From Eledone cirrhosa (Eukaryota): a stretch of DNA of 64,000 nt. Under the pieces are notes generated by a model. That model ran no database searches. It was not told the DNA's origin and worked only from the letters and a program-made list of their open reading frames with translations. Within the stretch, counting starts at the first letter, position 1. Each line of letters starts with the position of its first letter. Position numbers and translations under genes: made by a program. Below, piece by piece: positions 28 to 62,792 of the stretch. The stretch spans positions 18,848,001 through 18,912,000 of the forward strand of contig OZ024750.1 in assembly GCA_964016885.1 (NCBI GenBank), written 5' to 3'.

Positions 28-362
28 TCATCATCATCTCATTTTACGTCCACTTTTCCCTGCTTGCAAGGGTGGGACGGGAACTGATTCTGGCTTGATT
101 TCTACAGCTGGATGCCTTTCCTAACACCAACCTCATTTACAGTGAGTGCTGGGTGCTTTTTTGCCGTGGCACCTCCACAACCACTTTGCAGTGGAATGAT
201 AGGGACCCCAGTCCCTATCATCTCATTTCTACAGCTGAGTAAACTGGAGCAATGTGAAATAAAGTGTCTTGCTCAAGGAAACAACACATCACCCGGTCTG
301 AGAATTGAACTCATAACCTTTTGATTGCAAGGCCAATGCTCTAACCACTAAGCCATGTGCCT
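28..362 (-). mobile_element. tRNA-derived SINE (CORE-like head, RTE-type 3' tail ending in (GAT)n), degenerate
   Basis: Minus strand reads a tRNA-like head (TGGCTTAGTGGTTAGAGCATTGG...GAGTTCAATTCTC), then CCTTGAGCAAGACACTTTATTTCAC, then GTTAGGAAAGGCATCCAGC and ...GGACGTAAAA-(GAT)n. Similar head at 56635-56760 (+). Confidence 0.7.
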
Positions 363-2949: not shown

Positions 2950-3478
2950 CTCCCACCCACTCCACCATCATCATTGGCAACATTCTCATCAACACAATCA
3001 TCGTTCTCATTGCTGCTACTACCACCACCACCACCACAGCCATCATCATCATCATCATCATCATCATCGTCGTCAACATCTTCATCATCATAATCATTGC
3101 TGCCACCAACTCCATCACCATCACCATAACAACCGCCACTAATATTACCCCACCACCACCACCACCACCACCGCCACCGCATCCATCAGAGACAAGATGT
3201 CTGTTTTATGTTTACCCAGACCACACCTGACACCTTACCAACTACACAGAACATTTCAAGGTTGGAATAGTAGTATAAAGGAAATAGTATGTCTGGTTAA
3301 ACATTGGTGGTGGTGGTGGTGGTGGTGGTGGTAGTGGTATGGTGGTGGTGGTGATGGTGCTGGTGTTGGTTGTTGTGATGGTGCTGCTGGTAGCAGTGGT
3401 GGTGGTGGTGGTGGTGGTGGTGGTATGGTGGCGGTATGGTGGTGGTGGTGGTGGTGGTGGTGGTGGTGGTGGTGGTGG

Positions 3479-3509
<31 letters not shown>

Positions 3510-3617
3510 GTTGGTTGTTGTGATGGTGCTGCTGGTAGCAGTGATGGTGGTGGTGGTGGTGGTGGTGGTACGGTGGTGGTATGGTGGTGGTGGTGGTGGT
3601 GGTGGTGGTGGTGGTGG

Positions 3618-3648
<31 letters not shown>

Positions 3649-3890
3649 GTTGGTTGTTGTGATGGTGCTGCTGATAGCAGTGGTGGTGGTGGTGGTGGTG
3701 GTGGTGGTATGGTGGTGGTATGGTGGTGGTATGGTGGTGGTGGTGCTGGTTGTTGTGATGGTGATGCTGGTAGCAGTGGTGGTGGTGGTGGTGGTGGTGG
3801 TGGTATGGTGGTGCTGGTGCTGGTTGTTGTGATGGTGCTGCTGGTAGCAATGGTGGTGGTAGTCCTGATGAGGATGATGATGATGATGAT
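2950..3890. repeat. (CAT)n/(CAC)n then (TGG)n trinucleotide tracts with higher-order repeats
   Basis: Direct reading; source of the poly-H/P/T/V/G ORFs. Confidence 0.95.
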
Positions 3891-3894
3891 TTCT

Positions 3895-4275
3895 TTCTAA
3901 TATTAGCCCAAGGTAAGCAATTTGGAGGAGAAAGGGGAAAGTCAATTATATTGACCTAGTATCTAACTGGTACTTTATTTTATAGACCCCATAAGGGTGA
4001 ATGTCAAAATTGGCATCAGCAAGATTCAAACTCAGAACATAGAGGGTCATAACTAAATACAGTAAAGCATTTTGTCTTATGCTCCACTGATTCTGCCAGC
4101 CCACTGCACTAATGATGATGATAATAATTGTTTCTACTTTAGGCACAAGGCTAGCAATTCTTTTTGGGGGGAAAGTCGATTACATCGACCCCCACTGCAT
4201 TACTGGTTCTTTATTTTATCAACACCAGAAGGATGAAAGGCAAAGCTAATCTCAGCGGGATTTGAACTCAGAACG
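3895..4275 (-). mobile_element. Two degenerate Nin-domain SINE copies
   Basis: CTGGTACTTTATTTTAT..ACCCC..AGG.TGAA and GGATGAAAGGCAAAG..AAT.TC.GCGGGATTTGAACTCAG are the reverse complement of the family core. Confidence 0.75.
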
Positions 4276-4460
4276 TTGATGAGGAAGACAAAGACTTAGC
4301 AGAGACAATAACAACAACAACAACAATAACAACAGAACTGTAGCAACAGAATTTACAATTTAGTATTACTATTACACTGCAATAATGCAAATGAAAAATC
4401 CCACCCAGGTTAAATTTGTTTACCTTAAAGGTGATTATGTAAAATATAATACCAGTAACA

Positions 4461-4818: not shown

Positions 4819-5276
4819 TATATGTATGGTCCGATAACTTCGAATGGAGTTGTAGTGGCACCATATTGACATACAGCATTTCTAGAGCATTTTTAAACCT
4901 GGTGGAGCACAGCAGATTCCTTCCAGAGAAAGATAGAGAATGAGAAAATGGAAGTGAGGAAGAGATATAGAGGAAGAATCAACCCCAGTAATAGACTGGT
5001 ACTTTTTTTTATCAACCTTGAAAGGATGAAAGGAAAAGCTGACCTTGGTAGGATTTGAACTCAGAAAGCAGAGAGCCAGAATGAATACCTCAAAGCATTC
5101 TACTCAGCGTTCTAACAACTTTGCCAGATCGCCACCTTGACCAGTAATATACTGAGGTTGAATTAGATTACTAGACTTGTTCTAATTATTTTTAACACTT
5201 TTGATATGAAACTGCACAGAACCCTAAAACTACCCCTGGAACTGTGACACAGTTGTTTCCATATTTATTTTAAAAA

Positions 5277-6050
5277 ATCTGGCCTTGACCTATCACCAGT
5301 TGAAATGGGGCTTACATTTGACATCTGGCCTTGACCTATCTCCAGTTGAAATGGGGCTTACATTTGACATCTGGCCTTGACCTATCAGCAGTTGAAATGG
5401 GGCTTACATTTGACATCTGGCCTTGACCTATCTCCAGTTGAAATGGGGCTTACATTTGACATCTGGCCTTGACCTATCTCCAGTTGAAATGGGGCTTACA
5501 TTTGACATCTGGCCTTGACCTATCACCAGTTGAAATGGGGCTTACATTTGACATCTGGCCTTGACCTATCTCCAGTTGAAATGGGGCTTACATTTGACAT
5601 CTGGCCTTAACCTATCAGCAGTTGAAATGGGGCTTACATTTGACATCTGGCCTTGACCTATCACCAGTTGAAATGGGGCTTACATTTGACATCTGGCCTT
5701 GACCTATCAGCAGTTGAAATGGGGCTTACATTTGACATCTGGCCTTAACCTATCTCCAGTTGAAATGGGGCTTACATTTGACATCTGGCCTTGACCTATC
5801 AGCAGTTGAAATGGGGCTTACATTTGACATCTGGCCTTGACCTATCAGCAGTTGAAATGGGGCTTACATTTGACATCTGGCCTTGACCTATCAGCAGTTG
5901 AAATGGGGCTTACATTTGACATCTGGCCCTGACCTATCACCAGTTGAAATGGGGCCTTCATTTGACATCTGGCCATATTAGTTGAAATGGGGCCTACATT
6001 TGACATCTGGCTTTGATCTATTATGAGTTGAAATGAGACTCATCTGACCA
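5277..6050. repeat. 46-bp minisatellite, 15 near-identical units plus a degenerate end
   Basis: Unit ATCTGGCCTTGACCTATC(AC/TC/AG)CAGTTGAAATGGGGCTTACATTTGAC; starts at 5277, 5323 ... 5967. Confidence 0.95.
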
Positions 6051-6489
6051 TAACCTATTACTAGTTGTGCACGTCTCTGTTTACATGAGGCAATTGTTTT
6101 TAAATAGATATGATGTAATGAAGACTCAATTGACACAATGACTACACCCTCTTGTTTGTTTACACATATGTGCCAGGCTTTCATTGAGAGCAAGTTAGTT
6201 CAAGTTAGCTGTTGCTGGTGCTATTGCTGCAACATTTTCACCTGTGCAATGATGTAACTGGGAAATATTAGAAGCATACATCATCAGATAAACAAACTTA
6301 CTCAGCTCTTGCACTTGGTGAACTCTGCAAAATCATTAACAACAACAACAACAGTAATGATAACAGTGACAACAACTACAACAATAGCAACAACATCGTT
6401 GCTAGGAAACAGATCGATTTGAAGTAAATAACACAGACATAGATCAATTAATAAATGAGACAGACAGATAATAATAATAATAATAATAA

Positions 6490-6912
6490 TAATAATTGTT
6501 TCTACTTTAGGCACAAGGCCAGCAATTACCCAGTACATTACTGGTACTTTATTTTATCGACCCCGTAAGGATGAAAGGCAATGTTAACCTCGGCAGGATT
6601 TGAACTCAGAATGGCAAGGGCCGTAACTCTATGTGACAAAGCATAGCGTACGACCCTCTACTGATACTGCCAATTATTATTTGGTCTCCCAACCCCTGAG
6701 GGCGGAGGATTAGCAGTATCAGAAGAGGGTCGGATGCAATGCTTTGCAGCATAGAGTTACGGCTTTATGATCTGAGTTCAAATCCCATCAAGGTTAACTT
6801 TACCTTTCATCCTTATGCGGTCGATAAAATAAAGTACCAGTCATGCGCTGAGGTTGGTTTAATTGACTTTCCCCTCACCCCGAAAATTGCCGGCCTTGTG
6901 CCTAAGAAACCA
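6490..6912. mobile_element. Head-to-head pair of Nin-domain SINEs (minus 6490-6672, plus 6700-6912)
   Basis: Family consensus on both strands, separated by ~28 bp. Confidence 0.85.
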
Positions 6913-10208: not shown

Positions 10209-10461
10209 AGATAGATAAATATACACGGGTGTGTATGATTGTGTATAGAAGATTATATTAATAAGAGGAATTCCAACTTTGTCTGATTTACTCGTTTTAT
10301 TTACAATCCTTTAAAATTTATAATGGTATTATAATGAAATAGTTCAATTAACACTTAACATTTAATATTCTACCATACAATTTCATTATAATACCATTAT
10401 AAATTTTAAAGGATTGTAAATAAAACGAGTAAATCAGACAAAGTTGGAATTCCTCTTATTA
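10209..10461. mobile_element. Palindromic (TA)n-inserted element, family A (Penelope-like end); sister of 53609-54040
   Basis: Inverted arms 10259-10341 / ~10380-10461. The unpaired tail 10209-10258 is the reverse complement of ~53990-54040. Flanked by (TA)n. Confidence 0.85.
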
Positions 10462-10486
10462 ATATATATATATATACATGTATATA

Positions 10487-10814
<328 letters not shown>

Positions 10815-11482: not shown

Positions 11483-12060
11483 GATGGCTGCAAACTCGAT
11501 TTTGAGTAATGCCATCACTGGATACTTAAGCATGGGCATCACAAACGTGGGTTTTAATCCTGCTAGGGACTTGCCTATGGCCAGCAATACTATGCATCAC
11601 AAAAAATGTCACATATCAAGCGATGCCTGTGCTTGAAGCTTTTTTAAGTGAGGAAAGGCTTTGCACAGGGTCAATCCCACTCTCTGAACATTGAATGTAT
11701 TTGCCCAAAAAGAAGAACTGGTCTGCATCATTAGATGCAAATAAAGTCGCAGGTTTTATATCAGAATGACCTTCTCCTGGAGAGATGTTTTAATGAAGGC
11801 TAGGAGTCTCTCGCTCCACAAAAAAAAAAAACTTGATTGCATGGCTGTTGACTCTTCTGAGTTCCTCCGCCCTTTGAAGGGTTATGTTTTTCATCCCGCA
11901 GGGTGTTCAAAATCACCCTCCTCACGAAGCAAGCTTGGTGGGGTTGCCGGTTTACATCTTGATGGCGTAGGACAGAACAAAGGAGAGGCACAAAAACAAA
12001 GAAAAGAATCCCCAGTCACTGAAGAGGTCACAGAATGTGTGACGAAAGAACTTTGACAAT
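11480..12060 (-). mobile_element. Degenerate interspersed repeat, probably LINE-derived; homologous to 18760-18920
   Basis: 11838-11960 is the reverse complement of ~18775-18895 (AAAC.GGCAACC.CACCAA...GAGGGTGA.TTT...GGAGGAA.T.AGAAGAGTCAACAGCCATG). Confidence 0.55.
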
Positions 12061-28936: not shown

Positions 28937-30239
28937 ATATTGTTTTTAATTATGTTTCTAACACACTTCAAATCCTGTGGGGGAACACCTTTGCCTTCCA
29001 TCCCTCCAAAGTCAACATCATCACATAATATACTGAGTCAATGTAATTCATTACACATCCTTCCATTTTCAAACGTGTGGCCTTCTGCCAATGCAAGAGA
29101 ATATTATTATTATTGTTATTTTGACTAGTCCTTCCTCCCAAGTTTCTGGCCCTGTGCCTATGTTAGAATCAATTATTGTTGTTGTTGTTGTTATTATTCA
29201 GCAGTCTTATTTTTATTGCGTCTTGTCACTGTACAACTAAACATAGATCTGTGTACACCTTAGGTATGTGAAGTGCTTTCTTTTGGTTTGATTTTTCTAT
29301 TCTATTGTATTGACTATTATACATTATGCTATTTTCTGAATGTTGTGTATATTTGTAAGTCCAAGGATACTTTACATAATGTGTACTGTGCCTAGTAGTA
29401 CTATTTTCTGTATGATTTTAGCTTTTTCACCATTTCTACTGTTGTTTCTCTCAATTTCTCCCCTAGTTTTCTTCATAGCTAGCTGTCAATTCAGGTTCTG
29501 TTTTGTACTTGTTGGTCTCCTTAAAGACAGAAAAAAGGTTTTTTGGGGTGTGTGGGGTGGGGGCGGTTACTGCTTTATCAAAGAGGAAAGGGCAGTGCTC
29601 ATGGTTCTTCTAGGGCGGGAATGTCAAACATGCAGCCCTTTACAAGCACACCTGCAGCCCGCACATATATTTTTTTACAGTGCGAGCATGTTTTATCTTT
29701 GTAATATAAAATAAAAAATACGTGCTGTAATGTCTGCAATTAGTTGTCATGTGTGGCCCTCAGACAGCACATATGTGACCCTCGGGGGGGGGGGGGACCT
29801 TCAGTTTGACATGCCTGTTCTAGGGGTCTCTGGGACAGATGGGAGGAAGGGAAGGAGGTATCCTCAAACTGGGAGAGCTGGCCCTGGATGCTTATAGCAG
29901 AATGGAACCCACTAGAGACAGCCAGGGATTAGGTGGTTGTGTTAAACCAGGAGATAAATTAAATCTACTATCCAAGTAAATTATGGCTGGATTTGAACTC
30001 AGCATAAAGAGGGAGAAACAAATACAGAAATGAGACAGGATTTTTCTAGAAATGTGATGATGTGTCAAAACTAAACCATGAGGATGGTGATGGTGATGGT
30101 GGAATTAATGATGATTGTGATGCTGATGTTGGTAGTATTGCTGTTGCCGATGATGACAGAGATGATAGTTTGTTGTGATGGTGGTGATGATGTTGGTAAT
30201 GGTGTTGGTGGGATTGATGATGATGATGATTCTGATGAT

Positions 30240-32665
30240 GATGATGATGATGATGGTGGTATTGTCGCTGCTGCTGATGACAGGGTTGCTAGTAGTTGTG
30301 CTGATGGTGGTGATGATGATGTTGGTGGTATTGTCACTGCTGATGACAGGGTTGATGGTGGTGATGATGATGTTGGTGGTATTGTCACTGCTGATGATGA
30401 CAGGGTTGCTAGTAGTTGTGATGATGGTGGTGATGATGATGTTGGTGGTATTGTCGCTGCTGCTGATGACAGGGTTGCTAGTAGTTGTGCTGATGGTTGT
30501 GATGATGATGTTGGTGGTATTGTCGCTGCTGCTGATGACAGGGTTGATGGTGGTGATGATGATGTTGGTGGTATTGTCACTGCTGCTGATGACAGGGTTG
30601 ATAGTTGTTGTGCTGATGGTGGTGGTGATGATGATGTTGGTGGTATTGTCGCTGCTGCTGATGACAGGGTTGCTAGTAGTTGTGCTGATGGTGGTGATGA
30701 TGATGTTGGTGGTATTGTCACTGCTGCTGATGACAGGGTTGATGGTGGTGATGATGATGTTGGTGGTATTGTCGCTGCTGCTGATGACAGGGTTGCTAGT
30801 AGTTGTGCTGATGGTGGTGATGATGATGTTGGTGGTATTGTCGCTGCTGCTGATGACAGGGTTGCTAGTAGTTGTGATGATGGTTGTGATGATGATGTTG
30901 GTGGTATTGTCGCTGCTGCTGATGACAGGGTTGCTAGTAGTTGTGATGATGGTTGTGATGATGATGTTGGTGGTATTGTCGCTGCTGCTGATGACAGGGT
31001 TGCTAGTAGTTGTGCTGATGGTTGTGATGATGATGTTGGTGGTATTGTCGCTGCTGCTGATGACAGGGTTGCTAGTAGTTGTGATGATGGTTGTGATGAT
31101 GATGTTGGTGGTATTGTCGCTGCTGCTGATGACAGGGTTGCTAGTAGTTGTGCTGATGGTTGTGATGATGATGTTGGTGGTATTGTCGCTGCTGCTGATG
31201 ACAGGGTTGCTAGTAGTTGTGATGATGGTTGTGATGATGATGTTGGTGGTATTGTCGCTACTGCTGATGACAGGGTTGCTAGTAGTTGTGCTGATGGTGG
31301 TGATGATGATGTTGGTGGTATTGTCGCTGCTGCTGATGACAGGGTTGCTAGTTGTGATGATGGTGATGATGATGATGTTGGTGGTATTGTCGCTGCTGCT
31401 GATGACAGGGTTGCTAGTTGTCATGATGGTGATGATGATGATGTTGGTGGTATTGTCGCTACTGCTGATGACAGGGTTGCTAGTAGTTGTGCTGATGGTG
31501 GTGATGATGATGTTGGTGGTATTGTCGCTGCTGCTGATGACAGGGTTGCTAGTAGTTGTGCTGATGGTGGTGATGATGATGTTGGTGGTATTGTCGCTGC
31601 TGCTGATGACAGGGTTGCTAGTAGTTGTGCTGATGGTGGTGATGATGATGTTGGTGGTATTGTCGCTGCTGCTGATGACAGGGTTGCTAGTAGTTGTGAT
31701 GATGGTGATGATGATGATGTTGGTGGTATTGTCACTGCTGCTGATGACAGGGTTGCTAGTAGTTGTGCTGATGGTGGTGATGATGATGTTGGTGGTATTG
31801 TCGCTGCTGCTGATGACAGGGTTGCTAGTAGTTGTGCTGATGGTTGTGATGATGATGTTGGTGGTATTGTCGCTGCTGCTGATGACAGGGTTGCTAGTAG
31901 TTGTGATGATGGTTGTGATGATGATGTTGGTGGTATTGTCGCTGCTGCTGATGACAGGGTTGCTAGTAGTTGTGCTGATGGTTGTGATGATGATGTTGGT
32001 GGTATTGTCGCTGCTGCTGATGACAGGGTTGCTAGTAGTTGTGATGATGGTTGTGATGATGATGTTGGTGGTATTGTCGCTACTGCTGATGACAGGGTTG
32101 CTAGTAGTTGTGCTGATGGTGGTGATGATGATGTTGGTGGTATTGTCGCTGCTGCTGATGACAGGGTTGCTAGTAGTTGTGCTGATGGTGGTGATGATGA
32201 TGTTGGTGGTATTGTCGCTGCTGCTGATGACAGGGTTGCTAGTAGTTGTGCTGATGGTGGTGATGATGATGTTGGTGGTATTGTCGCTGCTGCTGATGAC
32301 AGGGTTGCTAGTAGTTGTGATGATGGTGATGATGATGATGTTGGTGGTATTGTCACTGCTGCTGATGACAGGGTTGCTAGTAGTTGTGCTGATGGTGGTG
32401 ATGATGATGTTGGTGGTATTGTCGCTGCTGCTGATGACAGGGTTGCTAGTAGTTGTGATGATGGTGATGATGATGATGTTGGTGGTATTGTCGCTGCTGC
32501 TGATGACAGGGTTGCTAGTTGTCATGATGGTGATGATGATGATGTTGGTGGTATTGTCGCTACTGCTGATGACAGGGTTGCTAGTAGTTGTGCTGATGGT
32601 GGTGATGATGATGTTGGTGGTATTGTCGCTGCTGCTGATGACAGGGTTGCTAGTGGTAATGATGC
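30240..32665. repeat. 69-bp triplet-structured minisatellite (~35 units)
   Basis: Unit GATGATGATGTTGGTGGTATTGTCGCTGCTGCTGATGACAGGGTTGCTAGTAGTTGTGCTGATGGTGGT with triplet indels, embedded in degenerate (GAT/GGT)n. Confidence 0.95.
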
Positions 32666-46694: not shown

Positions 46695-46749
46695 GACTTC
46701 TACAGGACTAGTGCTGTTTCATTCTATGGTGAAATCATCAGGAAAAGCC
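46695..46749 (-). ncRNA. Type I hammerhead ribozyme, family C
   Basis: Minus strand GGCTTTTC-CTGATGA-tTTC accata GAAt-GAAA-CAG cactagtc CTG-TA-GAAGTC: all core nucleotides intact, GUA site. Confidence 0.8.
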
Positions 46750-47019
46750 TGTAGAATGAAACAGTATTAGAGAAAATACTAACTAGTAAATTACATGTCT
46801 GGTGCTCAAGAACAACATTTCTGGGATCTGCTCTCTTACCCTCTTTTTTTACTTTTCCTGTATATATTATCATAATTGTAAATAAATTTAAAATGGTGAT
46901 GTTACATAAATAAATACTCATTCATATATATATATATACTATAGTCAAGTGTAATCACTCAATTAGTAACATCTTATCCACATATATATATATATATATT
47001 GCATCTGGAACTAGCTGTT

Positions 47020-47140
47020 GACACAGCAAGAGCTCAGCCATTGGGGTCTGACTCTTTTATATAACCATACTCTACTACTCCAAGTATCAAGTACTCTGGT
47101 GAGTAATGGTCTAACAGGTTTTTACTGCATCCATTTTGAT
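47020..47140 (+). mobile_element. Decayed family B Penelope-like end
   Basis: GAGCTCAGC..GGGGTCT...ACTCTACTAC..CAAGTAT..AGTACT..GGTG.GT.ATGGTC aligns by eye to 10600-10690; between TA runs. Confidence 0.6.
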
Positions 47141-52568: not shown

Positions 52569-53608
52569 TTTCATTATATTATTCTAAATGTTAATATTAT
52601 TCAAATACTATGATAACGAGTTTGGCAGCCTACAAATTTGTGAAAAAAAAAAAGACGCGTTTAGACAATTATCCCTTAATGCCCTGTTAGCTAAGTATTC
52701 CTGAAAAATACAAAATGGCAGTATGACTGCATTAAAAATTATAGTTTTTACTTTCATAGAGCAAATTTTCTCTAGTAAAGATGCTGTAAACATTTGAATT
52801 AATAAACCACACTAGCAAAACAGCTTTATAGCATTAAGCCTGCATCACATTAAAGTCTTTAATACTGCAAGTTTTGACTAGTAAAAATACTGTAAACACT
52901 CGAATTAATAAATCACATTACTAAACAGCCTTGAAAAGTACAAAACACTACCATGACACATCACATTAAAGATTTTAATCTAATATTGCAAATTTTCATA
53001 ATCTGTTCACTAGTGAAGATATACTTTAAACATTTGAATTTACAACCCTTTTTTTAAATATTTTCTGCTAAACCATTACAGGATGTTAAGAGTTAGATAA
53101 ATACTAATTTTTATAGGGTAAAAGCAATAGTTATGTTGCGTGTTAGATATACGTACCTCTTGTTACTCATGCACTTAAGGACATCTGAACAATGTCTAAT
53201 ATGCCATACTGTAGCCACAGATATTACTGGTATATATGTGACTTTATATCTTAATACACGTTTCTTGGACAAACTTTTTTTAAACCCTGAATTGAATGTT
53301 CTACAAAAATACTTTTTATATTAATTTACTTTTACAGAATCATCATCAATATTATCATTTAACGTCTTTTTTTCCATGCTTACATGTGTTAAATGACTTG
53401 TCATGTCCTGAAGCTAGTCACGTCAGCTGACCACATCTTCCTCATACACACTATTTTTGGCTGGATGCCCTTCTTAATGCCAACCACTTTATAGAGTATA
53501 TTGGGTACATTTTATCATGGCACCATCACTACCATTTCACAGAATGCACTGGATGCATTTTATCACGGCATCATTATTGCCACTATATACATACATATAT
53601 ATATATAT

Positions 53609-54036
53609 TAATAAGAGGAATTCCAACTTTGTCTGATTTACTCGTTTTATTTACAATCCTTTAAAATTTATAATGGTATTATAATGAAATAGTATGATAG
53701 AATATTAAATTCTAAGTGTTAATTGAACAAGTACTTTCATGCTTTCGCAATCTTCAGGTTCATAATATGTGGTGACAGTCAAGTTTGCAATTTTCAACAG
53801 TTGAAAATTGCAAACTTGACTGTCACCACATATTATGAACCTGAAGATTGCGAAAGCATGAAAGTACTTGTTCAATTAACACTTAGAATTTAATATTCTA
53901 TCATACTATTTCATTATAATACCATTATAAATTTTAAAGGATTGTAAATAAAACGAGTAAATCAGACAAAGTTGGAATTCCTCTTATTATTATAATCTTC
54001 TATACACAATCATACACACCCGTGTATATTTACCTA

Positions 54037-54040
<4 letters not shown>
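53609..54040 (+). mobile_element. Perfect 190-bp-arm palindrome plus tail, family A Penelope-like end
   Basis: Arms 53609-53798 / 53800-53989 around a single A (53799), a ~50-nt tail, and (TA)n on both sides. Confidence 0.9.
53836..53874 (+). ncRNA. Minimal type I hammerhead ribozyme (mirror copy on minus strand at 53724-53762)
   Basis: TGAAC-CTGAAGA-tTGC gaaa GCAt-GAAA-GTAC-TT-GTTCA: 5-bp stem I, GNRA-capped stem II, palindromic GUAC loop III. Predicted cleavage after 53869. Confidence 0.85.
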
Positions 54041-54094: not shown

Positions 54095-54200
54095 ATATAG
54101 AAATGGCTTCTACAGGACTAGAACTGTTTCATTCAGAAGAAATCATCATATTGAGTACCTTACTGTGGTTACCCCCGATTGAACACGGGATAAACTTATA
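54091..54200. mobile_element. Family C Penelope-like end: inverted truncated hammerhead plus tail
   Basis: Minus-strand TGATGA..GAAA-CAG ttctagtc CTG-TA-GAAGCC (54105-54148) fused to plus-strand TATTGAGTACC..ACTGTGGTTACCCC tail; within (TA)n. Confidence 0.8.
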
Positions 54201-56227: not shown

Positions 56228-56420
56228 AGGGGATTGGCTTGGCAGTATCAGTAGCGCGTGGGACAATATGCTTTGTGATATATAGTTACGTCCCTTTACA
56301 TTCTGAGCTCAAATCCTGCTGAGGTTAACTTTGCCTTTCATCCTTACGAGGTCGATAAAATAAAGTACCAGTAATGCACTGGGTATTTGCTGGCCTTGTG
56401 CCAAACGTAGAAACAGTTAT
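56228..56420 (+). mobile_element. Nin-domain SINE
   Basis: Family consensus. Confidence 0.85.
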
Positions 56421-56634
56421 TAATATTATTATTAGGGAGTTCATTGGAGGTGGTTGAAACTAGAGAAATATTCAGTTTTACCTTTCTGCATTCTGAGTTC
56501 GAATTGTTCCAGGGATGTTGTTGGGGGTGGTTTAGTCTTTTATTTTCCTCCAGTGTGAGAGGGTTGGTGTCAGTTCATATAACTTCTACCTCCTTCTCTC
56601 TGGCAAACTTCATGAAATCATGATTATATATGTA

Positions 56635-61220: not shown

Positions 61221-61228
<8 letters not shown>

Positions 61229-61610
61229 ATATTAACAAATGGAAACTATATTTATAAAACCATATTTATTTCATTATACATATTTCAAGGGCCACCAAGG
61301 CAAATTATGGTGCGCTTTCATCAGATAAAATATAATATAGGTTAGTTTTATAAATAAATATTGACATACCCTGAAAAAATGCAACCATTTGTGTGTACAT
61401 ACGTTATGTATATTATATTTTATCTGATGAAAGAGCACCATAATTTGCCTTGGTGGCCCTTGAAATGTATAATGAAATAAATATGGTTTTATAAATATAG
61501 TTTCCATTTGTTAATATATTGTATATTTACTCCAATAATTTGTTGAGTGCTTTATATCAGTTATAAAAATATTTTGCTTGTTGTATCCCAACAAATTAAA
61601 TATAACCTCT
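61221..61610 (+). mobile_element. Palindromic (TA)n-inserted element, family D, with a hammerhead on each strand
   Basis: Arms ~61221-61339 / 61409-61525, a ~70-bp spacer and an 85-nt tail containing GTTGAGTGC. Confidence 0.85.
61267..61332 (-). ncRNA. Minimal type I hammerhead ribozyme, family D (plus-strand mirror at 61416-61479)
   Basis: TATTTTAT-CTGATGA-AAGcGCACCA..TGGTGGCcCTT-GAAA-T atgt A-TA-ATGAAATA: 8-bp stem I, long stem II, AUA site. Confidence 0.85.
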
Positions 61611-62619: not shown

Positions 62620-62630
62620 TATAATATATA

Positions 62631-62789
62631 TAGGAACCAGTAAGACCCCGACAGCTGAGCTCAAGCCGTCGAAACGGCTTGAGCTCAGCTGTCGGGGTCT
62701 TACTGGTTCCTATTACCCACTCTACTACCTCAAGTATTGAGTACTTTGGTGCGTTATGGTCCACCTGGTTCCTTACCACATTTCCTTCG

Positions 62790-62792
<3 letters not shown>
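62631..62792 (+). mobile_element. Palindromic (TA)n-inserted element, family B
   Basis: Perfect 39-bp arms 62631-62669 / 62674-62712, and a tail identical to 10633-10712. Confidence 0.88.

Follow-up and report, generated by a model that had tools for sequence, protein, structure and literature searches.

Does a short inverted pair of repeats at 10.2-10.5 kb of the window, by which we mean the whole 64,000-nucleotide stretch analysed here, preserve the 5' end of an RNA that had been cut by its own ribozyme? The first-pass annotation had proposed so, the plus-strand arm of the pair beginning where a minimal hammerhead in a sister copy at 53.8 kb is predicted to cleave. Both copies belong to one repeat family, called family A in the following, and we number the element from the G at window position 53870, the first base past the predicted cut (+1), position 53869 being -1. 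The features concerned are these:

10342..10466, plus strand: plus arm of the short inverted pseudo-LTR (pLTR) pair, element +1 to +125, no tail, starting at the predicted hammerhead cut
10209..10343, minus strand: inverted arm of the same pair, element +36 to +170, with the ~40-nt Penelope 'tail'
10342..10343, no strand: GT microhomology at the head-to-head joint of the 10.3-kb pair
53797..54040, plus strand: plus arm of the 53.8-kb pair, element -73 to +170 with tail; its start is the dominant 5' end (predicted transcription start)
53604..53801, minus strand: inverted arm of the 53.8-kb pair, element -73 to +125, no tail
53797..53801, no strand: quasi-palindromic ACAGT/ACTGT joint, the commonest head-to-head join of family A (36 of 100 listed)
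53836..53874, plus strand: minimal type I hammerhead motif (core match and predicted fold)
53836-53840, plus strand: hammerhead stem I, 5' strand
53841-53847, plus strand: hammerhead CUGAAGA
53848-53859, plus strand: hammerhead stem II region
53860-53863, plus strand: hammerhead GAAA
53864-53867, plus strand: hammerhead palindromic GUAC
53868-53869, plus strand: hammerhead U16.1-U17, predicted cut 53869/53870
53870-53874, plus strand: hammerhead stem I, 3' strand
53724..53762, minus strand: second hammerhead motif, carried by the inverted arm of the 53.8-kb pair

The plus arm does start at 10342 with GTTCAATTAAC, that is with the base immediately following the predicted CUU cut (53869/53870), and the GT joint described in the first-pass annotation is equally present, the inverted arm ending in a GT that is common to +1 and +2 of the plus arm. 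At 10342, GTTCAATTAACACTTA is preceded by an A where the element has T, so that 10342 is the outermost reach of the arm; since GT is common to both arms, the true start of the plus arm is +1, +2 or +3. At its other end the arm extends to ~10466, past the position 10461 at which it had been ended, and the inverted arm stops at an unremarkable +36. Taken alone, this copy is weak evidence for cleavage, as it offers a 3-nt window in a ~200-nt arm and is one of two such pairs within the 64-kb window.

The 53.8-kb copy contains a 195-nt palindrome, each arm of which carries TGAAC CTGAAGA TTGCGAAAGCAT GAAA GTAC TT / GTTCA, the slash marking the predicted cut, which we place at the same bond as the earlier annotation. 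The predicted fold has a stem I of 5 bp and a stem II of 3 bp. Family A shows the CUGANGA and GAAA core, the NUH cut and the helix I of 4-5 bp of type I hammerheads, and the CUGAAGA and GAAA positions are 96-99% conserved over ~215 arms. The GUAC loop is palindromic and dimer-permitting (15.2-16.2/loop 3), and a predicted co-fold pairs two copies there. Helix II is not long, having 3 bp only, with U-U in place of the usual G10.1-C11.1. An Rfam scan gave no hammerhead match at E<=1, its matches being of microsatellite and hairpin type only, and no paired changes were seen in the stems, the copies being too young for compensatory changes. The hammerhead call follows from the core, the 5-bp stem I, the 3-bp stem II and the palindromic GUAC that pairs two copies in the co-fold.

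Family A is, to judge from its coding frames and layout, the pLTR of a young Penelope-like element (PLE) with RT and GIY-YIG. Its anchor +1 to +25 has 6,579 exact occurrences in the genome, and longer copies run upstream into an RT and GIY-YIG frame. Locus L263 (G000:C1:21871500-21881400) is a full-length 4.3-kb inverted dimer centred on the cut, with arms identical at 4314 of 4317 nt and both 3' hammerheads intact. The 4202-nt unit between its repeats contains a 449-aa ORF1 and a 775-aa frame, which matches GIY-YIG at E 3.3e-6 (above the cut-off) and RVT_1 at E 2.9e-6 and 27.6 bits, just below the cut-off of 29.6. In the translation of L263, GIY-YIG is preceded by a CX4CXXC linker (C-NDNR-C-GT-C) that agrees with the CX2-5CxxC definition of Neptune/Nematis elements in the accessible text of PMC8557442, where pLTR, inverted partner and tail are also described as PLE features. 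The tandem or inverted placing of pLTRs that is typical of PLEs is seen in L263, where the unit lies between repeats and has an inverted partner, and in 101 inverted pairs among the loci fetched. Copies lie within (TA)n, and their 3' ends are of two kinds, at ~+125 and at +165..170.

ORF1 of this element (449 aa) has no Pfam match. It overlaps the RT-EN frame by 90 nt (L263:6337-6427), in the -1 frame. A U UUU UUA heptamer lies there in the phase of ORF1, and it is also found in L010, L023, L079, L200 and L262. Overlap and heptamer together make a candidate programmed frameshift; no strong hairpin is predicted downstream of the heptamer.

If cleaved RNA were the usual template, as the first-pass annotation had claimed in stating that cleavage 'defines the retrotransposition template', most arms should start at the cut. 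A DNA similarity search of the genome favours full-length matches and is unfit for a histogram of starts, and sequence patterns were used instead. Our unselected sample consists of the first 100 listed of the 6,579 anchor places (first 55 Mb of contig 1), in which 101 arms were measured, the 101st being a partner arm within the same region. Three arms start at -1, three at -4..-6 and none at -7..-27, followed by six at -28..-36 (mostly internal duplications and deletions), two at -48 and -54, 65 at -57..-74, including 24 at -73, and 22 beyond -88. GAAA-GTAC-TT is kept in 95 of the 101 arms and the whole ribozyme in most, which indicates that they were copied from uncut RNA. The claim on the template is therefore not supported: the start lies 57-74 nt upstream of the cut in 65 arms and further still in 22, with the hammerhead intact, against three at the cut, and the R2/Perere-type situation, in which most intact 5' junctions lie at the cut, is not what we found in family A. 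The histogram of truncation points that had been suggested as a check does refute uniform truncation and does have a peak at the cut, although a minor one, of ~3-4% of arms versus ~65% upstream.

The dominant 5' end lies at ACAGTTG (window 53797), ~30 nt behind a TATA box and with CCAAT boxes further upstream; these promoter motifs were read upstream of the match in L007, L019, L024 and L033. Genome-wide, 1,700 exact arms begin at -73..-78. The -73 end is likely the transcription start of the pLTR. A cap-derived G at -74 was also looked for, and G stands there in 7 of 100 arms, which is no cap signature. Slightly downstream, at -41..-35, the two arms of a pair often differ at several linked sites yet agree elsewhere (L003, L048, L057, L127, L169, L201, L203).

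Starts around the cut were counted over the whole genome with break-counting patterns, which combine an exact downstream anchor with mismatches at upstream G/C positions, window by window. Positions -13..-6 gave 99 matches, all listed, of which ~40 are of 5'-end type (hand count, 13-nt context), or ~5 starts per position, and positions -5..-3 gave 35 matches, 19 of them 5' ends by hand and 20 of the 30 fetched by script, or 7-8 starts per position. At the site itself (-2..+4) there are 229 matches, and 76 of the first 100 are 5' ends by script and eye, amounting to ~29 starts per position. The count then falls to ~17 per position at +5..+11 (180 matches, 64-70 of the first 100 by hand), many of these being partner arms of site events, and to 3-4 at +30..+37 (225 matches with one filter only, 10-14 of the first 100, 2 of 30 by script). 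In the site window, 95 of the first 100 matches were fetched, five evident small indels being left out; the 5' ends comprise 59 inverted junctions, 15 unrelated flanks and two ORF jumps, and the other classes are eight ambiguous cases, seven internal deletions and nine indels.

Compared with the upstream rate, all 5'-type ends, which are not fully independent of one another, are enriched 5.4-fold in the site window (genome-wide estimates). Single arms joined to unrelated DNA are enriched 3.5-fold, with 14 events versus 4 expected (P ~0.001, using hand counts), and self-complementarity cannot explain this enrichment. The step at the scissile bond is real and has a downstream tail, background making up about one in five starts within the site window. 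The peak is broad (-2..+11), and most junctions are ambiguous by 1-5 nt. It has the same shape as the -73 peak, with a step and then ~10 nt of tail, and the -73 peak shows that such a step-plus-tail arises where RT runs off an RNA 5' end. Among the unrelated-flank or jump junctions of the site window, 10 of 16 reach +1; in L262 the jump from the ORF lands exactly at +1, and the arms of L217 and L223 at +1 adjoin filler. Arms that bear ORF sequence are 5 of 141 among those starting at the site versus 1 of 164 among those starting at -76..-50, a difference that is suggestive only (P = 0.10).

In L211 and L262, ORF-internal sequence is joined in the same orientation to pLTR +1, which is what a template jump from a cut RNA end should leave. 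For such arrangements we also considered a spliced 5' UTR intron, and set it aside because the same-strand jumps have no fixed donor.

The sequence -1..+12 is partly self-complementary, with a 4-bp inverted repeat TGTT..AACA, and part of the head-to-head joins use it: the first 100 of the 229 site matches contain 13 joins at TGTT/AACA, 11 at TCAATTAA and three at TTG/CAA, and the first 100 of the 180 matches at +5..+11 contain seven at TTAATTAA. We estimate ~70 head-to-head joins just 3' of the cut genome-wide, at +1..+12, where complementarity is imperfect, versus four, five and two at the perfect palindromes nearby, AAGTACTT (-8..-1), ATTATAAT (centre +47, present in about two thirds of arms) and AATATT (centre +25), respectively, which implies that cDNA ends were plentiful immediately 3' of the cut and rare immediately 5' of it. 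In this comparison the TGTT/AACA class (13/100) can fold in cis and is therefore inflated and not strictly comparable, while the loopless classes (~38) are comparable. The flanks differ among the 12 + 12 loci of the TGTT/AACA and TCAATTAA classes, so that the head-to-head joins represent independent insertions.

As for the origin of the pairs, 88 of 101 carry the tail on one arm and not the other, in keeping with the Penelope tail, and asymmetric pairs have it 14 times on the longer and 14 times on the shorter arm. In cis, the commonest -73 joint (36/100) needs a 1-nt loop; between two cDNA ends it is a 5-bp duplex with one mismatch. In just 1 of 101 pairs do the arms differ jointly at the subfamily-linked sites (+17, +18, +32, +47, +116). 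These data suggest that pairs arise from two cDNAs, primed at two RT start sites and joined at their ends, with a later central deletion possible for individual pairs. The linked-site agreement rejects an origin of the arms from random RNAs and indicates usually one RNA or one source locus; fold-back of a single cDNA is ruled out for the 10.3-kb copy by the tail on its shorter arm.

Our preferred reading, which we hold to be rather probable, is that the hammerhead cleaves in vivo and that cut RNA is occasionally copied, the 10.3-kb plus arm being one outcome of a minority route that would account for ~3-4% of arms. The original proposal of reverse transcription to the 5' end of a cleaved RNA thus survives as the best reading of the cut peak, though with uncut RNA as the predominant template. 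The pLTR promoter, with CCAAT boxes and a TATA box ~30 nt upstream, would start the RNA at -73; the protein of the element would nick (TA)n DNA and prime two cDNAs at ~+125 and ~+170; each cDNA would extend as far as the RNA's 5' end, and the two ends would be joined head to head via a few complementary bases, often after trimming. In most cases the RNA would be uncut and yield -73 ends; sometimes it would be cut, probably as a dimer via the palindromic GUAC, and yield +1 ends with a trimmed tail to ~+11. More tentatively, two RNAs in the transposition complex might form a GUAC dimer and cut one another, the two cDNAs then ending at the cut and joining there head to head, and cut RNAs being over-represented among ORF-bearing copies. 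If this were true, junction histograms would provide a genome-only assay of both ribozyme activity and twin-cDNA integration in any Penelope family.

A peak at this place could also form without any cleavage, if RT stalled or dropped off at the folded hammerhead, either at stem I or at an 8-bp intermolecular duplex of AAGUACUU (-8..-1), and self-complementarity at -1..+12 captured the ends. We judge this unlikely, albeit deserving attention. The duplex starts exactly at -1 and predicts the same boundary (-6.6 kcal/mol predicted), the peak is broad and reaches +11, and hammerhead activity is dispensable in vitro in a related system (PMC11167929). However, the AAGUACUU duplex is weak, other predicted hairpins in -50..-7 give no peak (0/101 starts at -7..-27), and a stall at stem I would leave the cDNA end at +6 or later, yet 10 of the 16 unrelated-flank or jump junctions reach +1. 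Of at least five pLTR families with a hammerhead that were seen, a second one, present in the window, can be read either way. The pLTR of family E (12014-12057, plus strand) has a hammerhead with G10.1-C11.1, a stem II of 6 bp and a GAAC loop that is not palindromic, and its starts show no clear step by script (9/30 x 235/6 = ~12 per position at the cut versus 17/30 x 175/9 = ~11 upstream), nor does a hand count of 100 each replicate the step of family A (15 versus 10 per position). Family E may cut poorly, or the family A peak may be a local effect; the lack of a step with a non-palindromic loop agrees with stalling and is equally compatible with a dimer-dependent cut.

The peak may be genuine and the 10.3-kb copy still belong to the background, as a -73/-73 palindrome with a GT-mediated deletion of its centre or as a random truncation, which seems to us improbable. 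Long palindromes without mismatches lose their central part, roughly one start in five within the site window is background, the arms share 2 nt of microhomology at the joint, and +36, where the other arm stops, is unremarkable. A central deletion nonetheless gives no cause for the genome-wide +1 step or for the enriched single arms with unrelated flanks, and intact -73/-73 palindromes are common. Least credible, to the point of being very improbable, is a minor transcription start or other RNA-processing end that falls at +1 by chance. RNA starts do leave peaks, the main -73 peak being itself best read as one, but this one would have to fall by coincidence on the scissile bond of a conserved motif, and what lies 30 nt upstream of +1 is the ribozyme core and not a TATA box.

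The kind of element and Penelope hammerheads were already known, while the line of evidence for cleavage from 5' ends, indirect and drawn from sequence, would be new. In-vivo cutting by Penelope hammerheads, as well as the copying of cut RNA, are stated as open in PMC4209133, PMC11167929 and the accessible parts of PMC8557442, the last of which calls the function of PLE hammerheads unclear. The accessible portion of 10.64898/2026.07.22.740005 does not mention cleavage sites, and we found no report of PLE 5' ends at a hammerhead cut in a search of openly accessible article text.

Minimal hammerheads in PLE pLTRs have been described as having low activity as dimers, with in-vivo evidence stated to be absent (PMC4209133). 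Family A shares with them the pLTR location, a helix I of 5 bp, an additional base following A9, a small palindromic helix III that lends itself to cleavage as a dimer and the many dispersed single or opposite-strand copies, and differs from them in its 3-bp helix II, U-U for the conserved G10.1-C11.1, CUU triplet and indirect genomic footprint. In the PAc element (Poseidon) of Anolis (Frangieh et al. 2024, PMC11167929), which has two known RT start sites, cleavage is protein-assisted in vitro, hammerhead mutants insert normally in vitro, and no RNA-seq reads ended at the cut. PAc and family A have in common two 3' ends ~40 nt apart, AT-rich targets, a hammerhead upstream of the RT start sites and uncut RNA as the dominant template; unlike PAc, family A has a minor class of genomic 5' ends at the cut, an ORF that starts downstream of the tail, and two overlapping ORFs. 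With Neptune/Nematis-type EN+ elements, as characterized in the accessible text of Craig et al. 2021 (PMC8557442), it shares the C-terminal GIY-YIG and the CX4CXXC linker, in a comparison of features, as well as inverted 5'-truncated partners, the one-end tail and (TA)n flanks.

A genomic 5' junction at a ribozyme cut has a precedent as evidence of in-vivo cleavage in the HDV-like ribozyme of R2 (PMC3774820, in its accessible part), and the same argument is made for the twister ribozyme of the non-LTR retrotransposon Perere-3 (PMC8501958, likewise). As far as these portions go, the cut is the standard 5' end in R2 and Perere-3, whereas in family A, with a different ribozyme and element class, it gives a less frequent end within the pLTR, next to an upstream one that dominates. 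The step of 5' ends at the scissile bond is an indirect sign of in-vivo cleavage, its size marking the route as minor. The start counts also give a likely position for the promoter start, and from them it seems that the inverted repeats of Penelope elements are two cDNAs joined end to end. Such a start-histogram test requires an assembly alone and is applicable to every family.

The window contains further repeats of related layout. At 61225-61610 lies an inverted pLTR-like pair with a one-arm tail, hammerhead motifs at 61424 (plus strand) and 61324 (minus strand), and a palindromic AU-rich loop 3. Another repeat, found at 46741 and 15649 (both minus strand) with fragments near 54100 and 10910, combines a hammerhead-like core, CTGATGA...GAAA, with a long stem III region. 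A hammerhead descriptor detected no CUGANGA core in family B, whose inverted pairs lie in (TA)n with a one-arm tail at 10520-10710 and 62630-62790, an older copy being present at 47008-47120. Finally, there are tandem arrays at 30100-31900, 5139-6082 and 3293-3900, with periods of 69, 46 and 9 nt, and an inverted SINE-like pair at 6478-6673 and 56239-56434.
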